The notes beneath the pieces are model-generated. The model did no database searches. It saw nothing but the letters and a program-made list of their open reading frames with translations, and was not told where the DNA came from. A DNA stretch of 64,000 bases, from NCBI RefSeq assembly GCF_017348835.2, contig NZ_CP071375.1; one strand, written 5' to 3'. The DNA is from Escherichia coli (GTDB taxonomy: Bacteria; Pseudomonadota; Gammaproteobacteria; Enterobacterales; Enterobacteriaceae). This document shows positions 33,506 through 47,062 of the stretch, one piece after another. Made by a program: the position numbers and the translations under genes. Within the stretch, counting starts at the first letter, position 1, and every line of letters starts with the position of its first letter.

Positions 33506-34072
33506 ATGCCTTAAACGGTTAACCACGGTCGAAATCTGACTGCAGGCTTGACTGCATGACCACAGCCACTGTGGATTGTCGCAACCGACCGCAAGCCACG
33601 AATAAGAACGACGGCGAATTTCGAATCGTTACCTGATGCACTGGCTTCCCAGCGTTTGACCGTAGCGTTAAGTAAATCAACAAAAGCGATGTTCACCGCT
33701 TTTCGTCAAGTCGTGCCATTTGTCAGCCAGGATCGGGTCTTTACCCCGGATATTGCAGCATCGCAAAAATTCTTAGAGGGATATGCTATAAATCAAAAAT
33801 AAAATCTTTGTTGATTGTTTATCATAATATCCACAGATATGATAAATGATATCAATTTAATAATTTTCACTTAATGTGATTCCGGATAATTCGAAAGGCG
33901 CTGTGCTTTTCGGATTATTATTATCTGATTAAGATATTTGTCACGCCAGGCTTACTGGTTTATAAATGTCAATCATGATTCTTATAAATTATTTATTGCT
34001 GCTTTGGTTACCATTACTTCGTAATAAGTAATGTATTTTTGATTGTTTAAACTATTTTTAAGGGACGGCATT

Positions 34073-34978
34073 ATGCGAGGGAAAATACCTAAAACGGAAC
34101 TGCTGGTGACTTTTGAGGTCGTCGCACGTCATGAAAGTTATACCAGAGCGGCAGAGGAGTTAGCGTTAACCCAAAGTGCAGTATTCAGACAAGTAAGTGC
34201 GCTGGAGGAATTTTTACGTACTCCGTTATTTTCACACTCTAAAAAACGTATTTTTCTTAATGATGCAGGGAAGTATTACCTGGGGATAGTAAAAGAAACA
34301 TTAAATAAGCTGGAACGCGATACCAATACCATTATGACCTGGCAGCCTACGGTTCAGGTTATTGAACTTGCCGTTAATCCTACTTTTAGTACCCACTGGT
34401 TAATCCCAAATTTACATGAATTCACAAAGTTACATCCCGATATTATTGTTAATATTCATTCTTTAGCTAATAACGGCGATTTTCTTAATCGGGAGTACGA
34501 TGCTGTCATTATGCGCGAAAATTTTTGCGCGCCCTGGGCGGAAGTAGAATATCTCTTTGATGAGGAGATTTTGCCGGTATGCAGCGGCAGTTTGCTTGCA
34601 ATGTCCGATCAAAAACTGTCAGTGGCAGAACTGCTTACTGAGTTACCGCTTCTGCATCAAAGCACCCGTATTACTGGCTGGGAAGAGTGGTTTGCTTTAT
34701 CTGGCGTTAGCAGTCCGCTGGTCAATAACGGACCACGTTTCGATTTGCTATCAATGCTGATTGCCGCCGTGCGCTCTAATCTCGGCGTGGCGCTGTTACC
34801 ACGTTTCGCTATTCAACATGATTTGGATAGTGGCGATATGGTGATCCCCTGTGATGTGCCTATTCGTACCGGTAATCGTTTTATTATGACGTGGCAGGAA
34901 GAGAAGTCTGACTCACCGCACTTGCAGCAATTTCGTGAATGGTTGCTGGTGAAATCGGTCGTACCGCAGGAGATGTAA
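34073..34978 (+). CDS. LysR-family transcriptional regulator (accessory segment)
   Basis: Track ORF 34043..34978 trimmed to the ATG at 34073 (MRGKIPKTELLVTFEVVARHESYTRAAEELALTQSAVFRQVSALEEFL...), which has an AAGGGA Shine-Dalgarno. It has an N-terminal wHTH of LysR type plus a C-terminal substrate-binding-like domain. Not a K-12 gene at this locus. Confidence 0.85.
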   Translation: MRGKIPKTELLVTFEVVARHESYTRAAEELALTQSAVFRQVSALEEFLRTPLFSHSKKRIFLNDAGKYYLGIVKETLNKLERDTNTIMTWQPTVQVIELAVNPTFSTHWLIPNLHEFTKLHPDIIVNIHSLANNGDFLNREYDAVIMRENFCAPWAEVEYLFDEEILPVCSGSLLAMSDQKLSVAELLTELPLLHQSTRITGWEEWFALSGVSSPLVNNGPRFDLLSMLIAAVRSNLGVALLPRFAIQHDLDSGDMVIPCDVPIRTGNRFIMTWQEEKSDSPHLQQFREWLLVKSVVPQEM

Positions 34979-34981
34979 AAC

Positions 34982-35008
34982 CTGCGCCTGGCGGGATGCC
35001 AGGCGCAG
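34982..35008. terminator. Bidirectional hairpin between the convergent LysR gene and the adenosyltransferase gene
   Basis: Perfect 10-bp stem CTGCGCCTGG / CCAGGCGCAG with a 7-nt loop. It lies 4 nt after the LysR stop and 4 nt before the minus-strand stop. Flanking A/T runs are short. Confidence 0.65.
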
Positions 35009-35011
35009 TTA

Positions 35012-35614
35012 TTACCAGTCGATACCCGGCTGGGCCTGAATGCCGTTATCAAAAGCATGTTTGACGGGGCGGATTTCGCTTACCGTATCCGCCATTTTTA
35101 ATATCTGACTGTGGCAACCGCGTCCGGTGACAATGACACTTTGTTGTGCCGGGCGGTTTTGCAGAGAAGCGATCACTTCTTCGGTATCCAAATAATGGTA
35201 AGCCAGCATATAGGTCAGCTCATCAAGCACCACTAAGTCGTAACGCTTGTCAGCCAGCATCCGTTTGCTTTCCGACCAGACCTCTTTCGCCGCGTCGATA
35301 TCCGCTTGCCGGTTCTGTGTCTCCCAGGTAAAACCAGTTCCCATAATATGAAACTCAACCCCCAGCGGCTGGAGAAGGTTGTATTCGCCGTTGTCCCATT
35401 GCCCCTTGATGTACTGCGCAACCCCCACCGTTTTGCCATGACCCACCGCGCGCGTCACAGTACCAAACGCGGCAGTGGATTTCCCTTTGCCGTTGCCGGT
35501 GAAAACAATCAAGATCCCTTTTTTCTCTATCGCCGCTGCGACGCGCGTATCGACCTGTTCCTTCAATTTCTGTTGGCGCTGCACATGCCGTTCAGTTGAA
35601 ATTCGCGCTTCCAT
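35012..35614 (-). CDS. Corrinoid (cob(I)alamin/cob(I)yrinic acid a,c-diamide) adenosyltransferase, CobA/BtuR/CobO family
   Basis: 200-aa ORF with the P-loop GNGKGKSTAAFG and the family-typical ...VVLDELTY...VIVTGRG... layout. Last gene of the minus-strand cluster, 9 nt after the fumD stop. Confidence 0.88.
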   Translation of the reverse strand: MEARISTERHVQRQQKLKEQVDTRVAAAIEKKGILIVFTGNGKGKSTAAFGTVTRAVGHGKTVGVAQYIKGQWDNGEYNLLQPLGVEFHIMGTGFTWETQNRQADIDAAKEVWSESKRMLADKRYDLVVLDELTYMLAYHYLDTEEVIASLQNRPAQQSVIVTGRGCHSQILKMADTVSEIRPVKHAFDNGIQAQPGIDW

Positions 35615-35623
35615 TCATTTTCC

Positions 35624-45055: not shown

Positions 45056-45504
45056 GGGTAATCCTTTGTAAGACAGAGAGTAAAATAAGTTACACACGTC
45101 GTATTTATGGCCGTTCATAACGGCACAGGTTTAATATCACAGGAGTGTCTTTATCTGACCGTAATGTTGCAATTGATCTATTTTCAAAATGTCTTTCGGG
45201 AAATGATTGTTTAAAGTGTGTTTTTAAATTTCCATGTTAATTCAGTGTGTTATGTCAACTAATGTCATGAATGTTAAATTTTTAAAATTAACTTGATTTG
45301 GTGTATTGAGATATTTGTGATCTACTTCTAATTTGCATTTTAGTGATATGGGTTTAGCCATAAGTAAATGCATTTCATAAAATTTAAGTCGAATTTCACT
45401 ACCATTCATTTCTGCTTAATGTAAAAGTAATGTTGAAAATAACAAATGGTTAATGATTAATGCGAATTATGACCTTCGTTAGCTCTTTTGATTTGCGTAA
45501 AAAA

Positions 45505-45528
45505 GAGAGATACATAGAGAGATACATG
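45505..45528. repeat. Tandem 12-bp direct repeat in the AT-rich spacer
   Basis: GAGAGATACATA GAGAGATACATG, two adjacent copies with 11 of 12 identical. Confidence 0.8.
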
Positions 45529-45613
45529 AAGGTGCTACCAGTATGAGTAATGTTATTTAAAGGTTTTATTACGTCTGGCAATAACGCAGGTCATTTTTCG
45601 CGACTGGGTGGGT

Positions 45614-46036
45614 TTAATCAGTATAATCCTCATACAATAGTTCAGGATTAACTGAACCGTTAACGGAGTTTTGATGTTGAAATTTAGAAATGGCGGAGTC
45701 AATCAATGAAGACAGTATTGAAAAAATAACTGTGTCAGAACTAATTTCAATTAATCCTTCTCGTTGCTGACCAAAAAAGATATTTATCTTGATTTCATTT
45801 GTACTACGGCAATCAATATGCAGTAATTTTTGATCGCTGAGATTTTCTGTTTCATAAATGTTTTTGGCGATAGTCGGATGTATTGATGCCAGACATCTGC
45901 TCAGATAAGCCAGATCCTTTAGGGAACACCCCGCTGAGTAGAGGATGTCAGAGAATTTTTGTGTGTCAACTGTTGGCTCTGAAGCGTATGTTGCATTGAC
46001 TGGAAGAGTATTGAAAGAGATCTGAGATGGTATCAT
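45614..46036 (-). CDS. Hypothetical acidic protein, 140 aa, AT-rich orphan
   Basis: ORF MIPSQISFNTLPVNATYASEPTVDTQKFSD...; no signal peptide or TM segment. About 17 D/E versus 9 K/R by my count. It lies 81 nt downstream of the 314-aa ORF on the same strand. The Shine-Dalgarno is weak and I recognise no family. Confidence 0.55.
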   Translation of the reverse strand: MIPSQISFNTLPVNATYASEPTVDTQKFSDILYSAGCSLKDLAYLSRCLASIHPTIAKNIYETENLSDQKLLHIDCRSTNEIKINIFFGQQREGLIEISSDTVIFSILSSLIDSAISKFQHQNSVNGSVNPELLYEDYTD

Positions 46037-46117
46037 TATTTAAATCTTTCCGTGAGTAATAAAAATTAATCCCCAGGCATTGTTTAGCAATATTTGCCAT
46101 AGGGGATATATAGAAAA

Positions 46118-47062
46118 TTAAAGTATTTTATTGGCTTCGGTTAACTGATCTATAACCAGTGCCAGATTGGTAAACATTTTGAAAAAGCGATACTGGCTCG
46201 GAATATCTCTTTCAAAGACGAAACATTCAAGGTCATTGTTTGAAAAATAAAGGACTAGTGTTGCTGATTCGTCAGGGAAAACATGGAAATGTATCTGGTT
46301 ACCAGAAGGAGGATAGTCCAGAAGAAGGGTATCTTTGCCCGTCACATACCTGTTGTGGTCGTGGATGCTGCGCTCACACTTCATCAGAGGTGTCATGATA
46401 CTCATGTATTCATCTGATGTTAATATATTAAAATCACCATCCATTTTAAAGAAACGATAAAGTAACAGTATATCCTCTTGCGTAACCGGTTCGTTTGTTT
46501 TTAGAGGGAAATAAGTGGGAACCAGAAGATGAGGTTCTAATCTATTTTGTTGAGCGCTATAACTAAATTTGAACATAAATTCCGGATCGCTCATTAATTG
46601 AGTGACATAATTATGCCTGGCTTCAAAAATTTTAATTTTTATCAGGTTGAATAAGTCTGTTTCGTCATCCTGTATTAAAAGACATTGGCCATAGCCGCCA
46701 GGCTTTTTTTCATTATAAGCAGAAACGGTTATTCTGTCAGAGGTGTCAACGTTATATTCAAAAGCAAGATAGTGACCTTCTTCATCGCGATTTGTTTCCA
46801 GGTTATTTAAATTCATCACATGAAGTGTTTGCAATGCTGATTCAATGAGCTGTTGACTCTCTGGGGTAAATGTTTCGCGCTGCGTTGTATAAAGTGTATC
46901 AATTCCAACGACTATCCGATGTGGGTCAAGGATGGCGGCAATCATCTTTATTACCTGCACAGTCACGGGTGATGTCATTGATTCTTTATCTGTTTTTAGA
47001 GAATCATTAGATGGCCAACCTGAGAAGCGATTGACAGCCGAACCGATATTATCAGGACTCAT
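46118..47062 (-). CDS. Hypothetical protein, 314 aa, AT-rich orphan
   Basis: ORF MSPDNIGSAVNRFSGWPSNDSLKTDKESMTSPVTVQ...; soluble with a Ser/Thr/Pro-rich N-terminus. The hexapeptide YRFFKM occurs twice (LLLYRFFKMDGDF and PSQYRFFKMFTNL). I recognise no family. Confidence 0.6.
   Translation of the reverse strand: MSPDNIGSAVNRFSGWPSNDSLKTDKESMTSPVTVQVIKMIAAILDPHRIVVGIDTLYTTQRETFTPESQQLIESALQTLHVMNLNNLETNRDEEGHYLAFEYNVDTSDRITVSAYNEKKPGGYGQCLLIQDDETDLFNLIKIKIFEARHNYVTQLMSDPEFMFKFSYSAQQNRLEPHLLVPTYFPLKTNEPVTQEDILLLYRFFKMDGDFNILTSDEYMSIMTPLMKCERSIHDHNRYVTGKDTLLLDYPPSGNQIHFHVFPDESATLVLYFSNNDLECFVFERDIPSQYRFFKMFTNLALVIDQLTEANKIL

Follow-up and report, generated by a model that had tools for sequence, protein, structure and literature searches.

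What does the interval between sucD and cydA encode in those Escherichia coli strains that hold a set of genes for cobalamin (B12)-dependent glutamate catabolism there, is that set complete, and how did it come to lie at this site? We address these questions in a 64-kb stretch of E. coli contig NZ_CP071375.1 (assembly GCF_017348835.2), called the window below and numbered from its first nucleotide. Between the sucD terminator and the cydA control region, the window carries an accessory segment with twelve open reading frames (ORFs), namely a gene for a LysR-type regulator, nine minus-strand genes and two orphans, an arrangement that was proposed in an initial annotation of the sequence and is borne out by the ORF list and by family scans. 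Here, we argue from family scans, matches to deposited structures, a survey of genomic contexts and searches of complete E. coli genomes that this segment very probably specifies a methylaspartate pathway for glutamate catabolism that is complete and self-contained. The cluster is a member, not a variant, of the enterobacterial methylaspartate cluster and as such is already known: as the initial annotation had stated, Kronen & Berg (2015, PLoS One, PMC4682846) described it in O157:H7 and other enterobacteria as GlmS, MutL, GlmE, Mal, DUF1446, GltP, FumD, CobA and a LysR-type transcriptional regulator (LTTR). New here are the structure and history of the locus, with relics and variants that are not in the published description.

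Genes of the methylaspartate pathway

The genes of the proposed route are all on the minus strand. GlmS (44606-45055), subunit S of glutamate mutase and the one that binds B12, scores 245 bits against TIGR01501 (cut-off 135.8), and its cobalamin-binding DxHxxG motif is present as DCHAVG in alignment to PDB 1I9C. Subunit E (GlmE; 41754-43199) reaches 866 bits against TIGR01503 (cut-off 390) and about 630 bits against PDB 6H9E and 1CB7 (633 bits for 6H9E), and 3-methylaspartate ammonia-lyase (methylaspartase, mal; 40513-41754) reaches 544.9 bits against TIGR01502 (cut-off 286) and, over its full length, 895.7 bits against PDB 1KKO; all three pass the curated cut-offs of the families to which the initial annotation had assigned them. 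The glutamate mutase accessory protein GlmL/MutL (43218-44606) scores 509 bits against NF040745 (cut-off 475), and a CobA/BtuR-type ATP:cob(I)alamin adenosyltransferase (35012-35614) scores 216 bits against PF02572 and 295.6 bits against NF004637 (cut-off 185). The transporter gene (37384-38664) encodes a member of the sodium:dicarboxylate symporter family (DAACS; PF00375, 343 bits) that lies under the cut-offs of both equivalog models, GltP (302.6 against 638 bits) and DctA (313.6 against 513 bits), and presumably takes up glutamate. All twelve ORFs are present where the initial annotation had put them, with small corrections to three starts: RefSeq places that of lysR at 34073 and that of the transporter gene at 38664, and the glmS start at 45118 gives way to 45055 (149 aa), on which RefSeq and a cross-genus alignment agree.

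The class I fumarase gene (fumD; 35624-37276) yields 1271 bits against NF011921 (cut-off 1060), and its product shares 542 of 550 residues (98.5%) with Sakai ECs0757, the tag given for the assayed FumD of O157:H7 strain ATCC 700728 (PMC4682846). The kcat/Km of that enzyme is higher for mesaconate than for fumarate (PMC4682846), and by orthology the window protein is thus classed as a mesaconase. Across the ten cluster genes, all of them intact, comparison with Sakai gives 97 synonymous and 24 non-synonymous codon differences, and the genes are therefore maintained by purifying selection.

How would these proteins work together? In the proposed route, glutamate would be imported by the DAACS symporter and turned into (2S,3S)-3-methylaspartate by adenosylcobalamin-dependent GlmS and GlmE, with GlmL maintaining mutase activity and the dedicated CobA-type adenosyltransferase providing the coenzyme. 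Methylaspartase would then release ammonia to give mesaconate, the oxygen-labile FumD would hydrate mesaconate to (S)-citramalate, and a citramalate lyase, CmlAB, would split (S)-citramalate into pyruvate and acetate. Glutamate is abundant in the gut and its fermentation by this route is redox-neutral, and the route should matter when the gut is anoxic. E. coli cannot synthesize the corrin ring de novo; the route therefore depends on imported corrinoid, taken from the microbiota. By gene content, about one fifth of E. coli strains have the genetic capacity for this type of glutamate fermentation.

CmlAB as the predicted citramalate lyase of the cluster

In the published account FumD prefers mesaconate, and the fate of (S)-citramalate was left open (PMC4682846). 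No protein of the segment matches a citrate or citramalate lyase family of the CitDEF type, and the step appears to be covered instead by a non-homologous enzyme encoded by the two genes that the initial annotation had listed as unknowns. One of these, cmlA (39139-40509, minus strand), encodes an AtuA/DUF1446 protein (PF07287, 65.3 bits) with 421 of 456 residues identical to chain A of PDB 9ERQ; the other, cmlB (38825-39142, minus strand), encodes a DUF4387 protein (PF14330, 132.8 bits) with 88 of 104 residues identical to chain B. The chains of 9ERQ and 9EVF are deposited as 'Citramalate lyase, subunit A (cmlA)' and 'subunit B (cmlB)', and the matches to them run over the full length, at 92% identity for CmlA and 85% for CmlB. 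The two genes are adjacent, with start and stop codons overlapping at 39139-39142. This match accounts for the final step of the enterobacterial pathway and so makes the cluster complete on paper.

The Cml enzyme of Raoultella planticola has been described as cleaving citramalate directly to pyruvate and acetate, and together with FumA it supported mesaconate-dependent growth of engineered E. coli; the enzyme used was a gift of I. Berg's laboratory (bioRxiv 10.64898/2026.01.16.699985). We accordingly name the E. coli pair as a predicted citramalate lyase, its activity being known from the R. planticola orthologue.

Does the genomic context of cmlAB fit this assignment? With CmlA as the query and one genome taken per species, 69 informative loci were obtained, from Proteobacteria, Bacillota, Planctomycetota, Bacteroidota and Dictyoglomota; besides Enterobacterales they include Rhodocyclales, Telmatospirillum, Planctomycetales, Desulfotomaculum and other Bacillota, Alloprevotella and Dictyoglomota. 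Every one of the 69 has cmlA next to cmlB. In 65 of them mal and glmE lie beside cmlAB, and glmS, glmL, glmE and mal are co-linear with it.

This co-linearity bears on the question of whether the true substrate might be something other than glutamate. The transporter would then import a C5-dicarboxylate such as mesaconate, methylaspartate or citramalate, and the mutase would be secondary or run in reverse. Such a reading can draw on the transporter's similar scores for the DctA and GltP models, neither of which it passes, and on the finding that Cml and FumA suffice to take mesaconate to pyruvate and acetate in engineered E. coli (bioRxiv 10.64898/2026.01.16.699985). It can also draw on the four loci in which cmlAB stands without mal or glm genes nearby, although three of these are on short contigs (2.7-9.5 kb) and the neighbours may lie off-contig. 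Nonetheless, a dedicated adenosyltransferase and GlmL make sense only with a mutase in use, and in 144 E. coli genomes the cluster adjoins a hut operon, whose end product is glutamate. Taken with the 65 co-linear loci, this makes a substrate other than glutamate highly improbable, and we retain glutamate as the inferred substrate of the transporter and of the pathway.

As for nomenclature, the Sakai orthologue of cmlB, ECs_0759, is labelled 'acyl-CoA synthetase' and that of cmlA, ECs_0760, '3-methylaspartate ammonia-lyase', and the present RefSeq names are DUF4387 (cmlB) and AtuA family (cmlA); none of these names conveys a citramalate lyase. The AtuA-family and DUF4387 genes of such clusters should become cmlA and cmlB, with which the annotated pathway is complete.

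Haplotypes of the sucD-cydA interval

Is the segment an allele that took the place of the K-12 genes? The initial annotation regarded it as accessory DNA, and rightly so: at least 80% of its length is present in 1117 of 5426 complete E. coli genomes. Kronen & Berg gave the frequency of the cluster as 26.5% among E. coli strains and 90.6% among O157:H7 strains (PMC4682846). Junction-specific searches over the 5426 genomes distinguish six main states of the interval. The K-12 type, with mngRAB only, is found in 3173 genomes, and mngRAB followed by a tetratricopeptide-repeat (TPR) gene in 566; about 544 have the TPR gene without the mngB flank, likely in the order sucD-TPR-cydA as in strain LTC101, and appear to be without both mngRAB and the cluster. 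The window type, with relics and cluster, occurs in 835 genomes, the order mngRAB-rtcB-lysR-cluster in 145, and the order rtcB-hutU-permease-hutD-hutI-hutG-hutH-lysR-cluster in 144. At least one derivative exists in which IS1 has mediated a partial deletion of the cluster.

The initial annotation further held that mngRAB, present in the K-12 interval, is missing here, and tblastn with MngR, MngA and MngB against the whole window indeed gives no match. From this it had concluded that the segment replaced mngRAB through homologous recombination in the conserved flanks. A relatively recent replacement of this kind would be compatible with the highly conserved flanks and with the lack of tRNA genes, of flanking repeats and, among the ORFs scanned, of mobility genes, and the coexistence of several deeply diverged haplotypes is something that recombination could shuffle. 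However, mngRAB and the cluster stand in tandem in 145 genomes, about 544 genomes appear to have neither, and the window differs from the rtcB-hut form by deletions and not by a swap of the size of mng; the relics shared with other Escherichia species and the synteny in other genera, both described below, point the same way, as does the resemblance in GC content between cluster and flanks. Replacement of mngRAB is therefore quite unlikely.

mngRAB, rtcB-hut, the TPR gene and the two orphans each count as a separate module of the same hot spot, independent of the others. The sucD-cydA interval is thus a deep multi-haplotype polymorphism and not a dichotomy between K-12 and an island, which matters wherever the cluster, by being present or absent, serves as a marker. 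At the 3' end of mngB and just beyond it (about 7150-7750 in locus extracts L002, L003 and L005), the haplotypes of K-12, ST131/TPR and composite type diverge by about 10-15%; the mng module, too, is therefore present in old alleles that have diverged.

Relics of a longer form

Far from being featureless, the stretch from 33505 to 34054 holds relics of two genes at 33505-33802. The 3' end of an rtcB-family gene (33505-33605, minus strand) survives in two pieces, 33505-33546 and 33549-33605, which blastn aligns to the rtcB of strain 405 at 92% and 91% identity and between which 173 bp are lost; the relic is collinear with rtcB of strain WW2, and tblastn recovers 24 aa at 67% identity. It is followed by the 3' part of hutH, the gene for histidine ammonia-lyase (33609-33802, plus strand), recognized by blastn to the hutH of WW2 and, in tblastn, by 46 aa at 87% identity (E 1.5e-20) and 20 aa at 90%. 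A 61-aa ORF at 33511-33696 was rejected as a gene, as it spans both relics.

E. coli WW2 (NZ_CP081881) has the intact counterpart, rtcB with a hut operon of hutU, a permease gene, hutD, hutI, hutG and hutH, at 6233-16129 of its locus extract. Relative to this rtcB-hut form, with which it is collinear, the window has lost three stretches, of 175 bp, 9.08 kb and 342 bp. The window form thus descends by deletions from a longer arrangement, sucD-rtcB-hutU...hutH-lysR-cluster, and the same relic structure is found in E. whittamii and in Escherichia sp. E1V33. The relic zone is 81-94% identical to the intact form and the sequence from 34065 onward 98-100%, and the deletion is therefore old. The island of rtcB, hut and cluster is intact in about 2.7% of E. 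coli genomes. A literature search found no published description of an E. coli hut module beside the cluster.

The cluster outside Escherichia and its age at the site

Among the 69 loci of the context survey, cydA adjoins glmS in 32, and sucD and cydA both lie within 10 kb in 22. Siting between sucD and cydA extends to the Klebsiella oxytoca group, Citrobacter, Salmonella enterica subsp. arizonae and diarizonae, and Pseudescherichia, in all at least five genera, and at this site the proteins are 82-94% identical across genera, as expected of orthologues. The cluster has a GC content of 48-56%, similar to that of the flanks. Given this synteny in several genera, the protein identity of 82-94% and the flank-like GC, the simplest reading is that the cluster is an old resident of the interval that was lost from most E. 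coli, which is more likely than an incoming allele. The genes mngR, mngA and mngB flank the cluster on its glmS side in Citrobacter amalonaticus S646 (L030) and in an Enterobacter metagenome-assembled genome (L035), and on its sucD side in E. coli; the mng module therefore entered the hot spot at different points.

Regulation and expression

What controls the cluster? The nine genes would form one minus-strand unit, and a LysR-type regulator gene lies convergent with it, at its far end (34073-34978, plus strand). The product is GcvA-like, with HTH_1 (PF00126) at 64.2 bits and LysR_substrate (PF03466) at 97.3 bits, and scores 220 bits against the GcvA-like model NF008352, under its cut-off of 288. 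A LysR homologue accompanies the cluster in 52 of the 69 loci, and in three Rhodocyclales loci it is divergent from glmS at a distance of 203 bp. Between the convergent lysR and cobA genes is a GC-rich hairpin (34975-35015; inverted repeat I9) with a stem of 11 pairs, 9 of them GC, which is likely a bidirectional terminator.

Upstream of glmS, 114-134 nt before its ATG, we find a 21-bp block, TTTTGAAAATAGATCAATTGC (45169-45189, minus strand), that occurs once in the window against 0 occurrences expected by chance. It is near-invariant in 17 aligned glmS upstream regions from several genera, in surroundings that have otherwise diverged. Its core, ATAGATCAATTG, lies at -102 to -136 (with one outlier at -236) in 46 of 64 loci scanned. 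Apart from one record titled Aeromonas sp., all core-bearing loci are from Enterobacterales; the core is kept in Escherichia, Citrobacter, Klebsiella, Salmonella, Enterobacter, Buttiauxella and Pseudescherichia, and is absent from Yersinia and more distant taxa. Within the block, TGA-N7-TCA conforms to T-N11-A, the pattern of LysR-type sites, and the linked LysR protein probably controls the nine-gene unit through this candidate operator. As a canonical FNR or CRP site the block was rejected on account of its TTGA-N7-TCAA spacing. Compared by eye with the consensus sequences of sigma-54, IHF, Nac and ArcA, it gave no good match, and a search for FNR boxes that allowed 2 mismatches turned up nothing convincing upstream of glmS. 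Some 130 nt upstream of the block there is a second, weaker motif, ATCACAAA.

The 160-nt gap between cmlB and the transporter gene contains a strong stem-loop (38708-38743, minus strand; -25.2 kcal/mol, z -4.27 against shuffles), whose 16-bp stem is perfect and which lacks a clear T run. It may serve mRNA stability or attenuation.

Relatives of E. coli carry a further regulator at this site. In Salmonella diarizonae and Citrobacter pasteurii, a regulator of the AraC family that bears a PocR domain is encoded between sucD and lysR; at the same position, Klebsiella grimontii instead has an AraC-family member with a weak GAF-domain match. The stretches concerned are 17914-18801, 18046-19826 and 17986-18690 of locus extracts L026, L016 and L013, respectively. 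A tetrapyrrole methylase is also present at the Citrobacter site, and the E. coli site has none of these genes.

Several observations weigh against a pathway that works on glutamate in E. coli. O157:H7 ATCC 700728 showed neither detectable methylaspartase activity nor expression of the cluster, and glutamate did not support its anaerobic growth, whether or not one of three forms of cobalamin was added (PMC4682846); in vivo function in E. coli is therefore unproven, and our literature search found no expression study of the cluster. The E. coli site lacks the AraC-family regulator, which has a PocR domain in Salmonella and Citrobacter. Promoter-like matches to sigma-70 in the segment are not above chance (17 found, 22.8 expected), and no promoter was assigned; the TTGA-N7-TCAA spacing of the candidate operator is one base over that of an FNR or CRP site. 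On the enzyme side, the activity of CmlAB is read from PDB molecule names and from one preprint using the R. planticola enzyme, and a literature search found no primary biochemical paper on CmlAB. The DAACS transporter, finally, could carry mesaconate, methylaspartate or another dicarboxylate.

Could the cluster then be cryptic and effectively silent in E. coli, its enzymes still encoded and its expression lost with a PocR-type activator or with de novo B12 synthesis? The failure to elicit expression or activity in O157:H7 under any condition tried (PMC4682846) would be explained in this way, and E. coli lacks the PocR-domain regulator seen in its relatives between sucD and lysR; the neighbouring rtcB and hut modules have decayed to relics, and at least one IS1-mediated partial deletion of the cluster exists. 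However, the ten genes are intact and bear the mark of purifying selection (97 synonymous against 24 non-synonymous differences to Sakai), about 1117 genomes of diverged haplotypes retain at least 80% of the segment, and the upstream block is near-invariant. We thus regard a silent remnant as unlikely. The missing PocR-type regulator may nonetheless bear on the silence of the cluster in the laboratory.

A broader idea, which we put forward tentatively and hold to be doubtful as a whole, joins these strands: the segment could be what trimming has left of a larger island, specific to Escherichia, in which histidine use was joined to B12-dependent glutamate fermentation, with control by LysR through the 21-bp block and with laboratory silence due to a missing inducer or to loss of a PocR-type co-regulator. 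If this is true, histidine would be converted to glutamate, the end product of Hut and the substrate of the adjoining pathway, and then to pyruvate, acetate and ammonia in one coupled route.

Boundaries of the segment and orphan genes

Over a 15-kb stretch, the locus matches that of the pig isolate E. coli PE164 at 100% identity and that of an O157:H7 strain at 98.6%. On the left, the intrinsic terminator of sucD (33482-33506, plus strand) was found as annotated, with hairpin GGCCATCGTATGATGGCC at 33482-33499 followed by a T run, and the flank at 33380-33513 is 98.5% identical to K-12. We take this region to be that of SdhX, as established knowledge has it; an Rfam scan of 32500-48500 (E <= 1) gave zero matches, and so none that backs the SdhX label, and there is therefore no cobalamin riboswitch in this range.

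The right edge, placed at 47062 in the initial annotation, lies further on, in a boundary zone at 47220-47500: homology to the TPR-type haplotypes resumes at about 47220 and homology to K-12 at about 47450-47500, just upstream of the FNR box of the cydA control region. This box, TTGATATAAATCAA (47517-47530, plus strand), is perfect, as had been claimed, and is the sole perfect match in the 64-kb window; in K-12 it is conserved as TTGATATTTATCAA. Between 47450 and 47790, the cydA upstream region is in parts 35-77% identical to K-12, with at least 90% around 47600-47670, and is 93-100% identical to strains with the TPR gene, two FNR sites being kept. The cydA control region is thus a haplotype that has diverged from that of K-12.

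A search for tRNA genes in the window found none, flanking direct repeats at the segment borders were not significant, and the family libraries detected no integrase, transposase or other mobility family among the ORFs scanned, in agreement with the initial annotation, which had listed no integrase, insertion sequence, tRNA target or direct repeat. A self-mobile island, which would be expected to show such features, was rejected on these grounds.

Two orphan ORFs on the minus strand, of 140 aa (45614-46036) and 314 aa (46118-47062), lie between glmS and this boundary in DNA of 32-38% GC. Neither has a usable family match in Pfam, PADLOC or PHROG. The 140-aa orphan is restricted to Escherichia and Shigella: all its source-named homologues are from E. 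coli or Shigella, and it is absent from all 69 loci of other species. The 314-aa orphan is Escherichia-restricted and fast-evolving, with only 5 homologue clusters at 65-95% identity, the single named one from E. coli, and a 50%-identical copy in Escherichia sp. MOD1-EC7003; its AlphaFold2 model, from a 4-sequence alignment, is unusable (pLDDT 39, pTM 0.33). Compared with Sakai, it has 8 synonymous and 14 non-synonymous codon differences and both orphans together 17 and 21, which indicates weak constraint; the orphans are only 95% identical to their Sakai versions, against 98.5-100% for the cluster proteins. One orphan gene is frameshifted in strain VE-T9.

Comparison with known systems

The closest known system is the cluster of Kronen & Berg itself, which has the same genes in the order GlmS-MutL/GlmL-GlmE-Mal-DUF1446-(DUF4387)-GltP-FumD-CobA-LTTR and differs in nothing essential. 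In Sakai it occupies the same chromosomal site, the cluster corresponding to ECs0755-ECs0764 and the genes of the 15-kb stretch to ECs0755-ECs0767, and the cluster proteins there are 98.5-100% identical to those of the window. The K-12 system mngR-mngA-mngB, for utilization of 2-O-alpha-mannosyl-D-glycerate, fills the same slot between the sucD terminator and cydA and has no homology to the cluster; the two are independent modules that can coexist.

For the terminal step, CmlAB of R. planticola (9ERQ/9EVF) has the same two subunits, AtuA/DUF1446 and DUF4387, matching at 92% and 85% identity over their full length; the classical clostridial citramalate lyase, of the CitDEF type, is an unrelated enzyme. 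The pathway of Clostridium tetanomorphum and C. cochlearium resembles the one proposed here in its glutamate mutase S and E subunits with GlmL, its methylaspartase and its mesaconase of the class I fumarase type, as well as in its net conversion of glutamate to NH3, acetate and pyruvate. In contrast, the mesaconase is the single-chain FumD here and the two-subunit MesAB in clostridia, and citramalate cleavage falls to CmlAB here and to an acyl-carrier-protein-containing lyase of the CitDEF type there. Unlike the clostridial pathway, the window cluster also brings its own adenosyltransferase, transporter and LysR regulator, in a host without de novo B12 synthesis.

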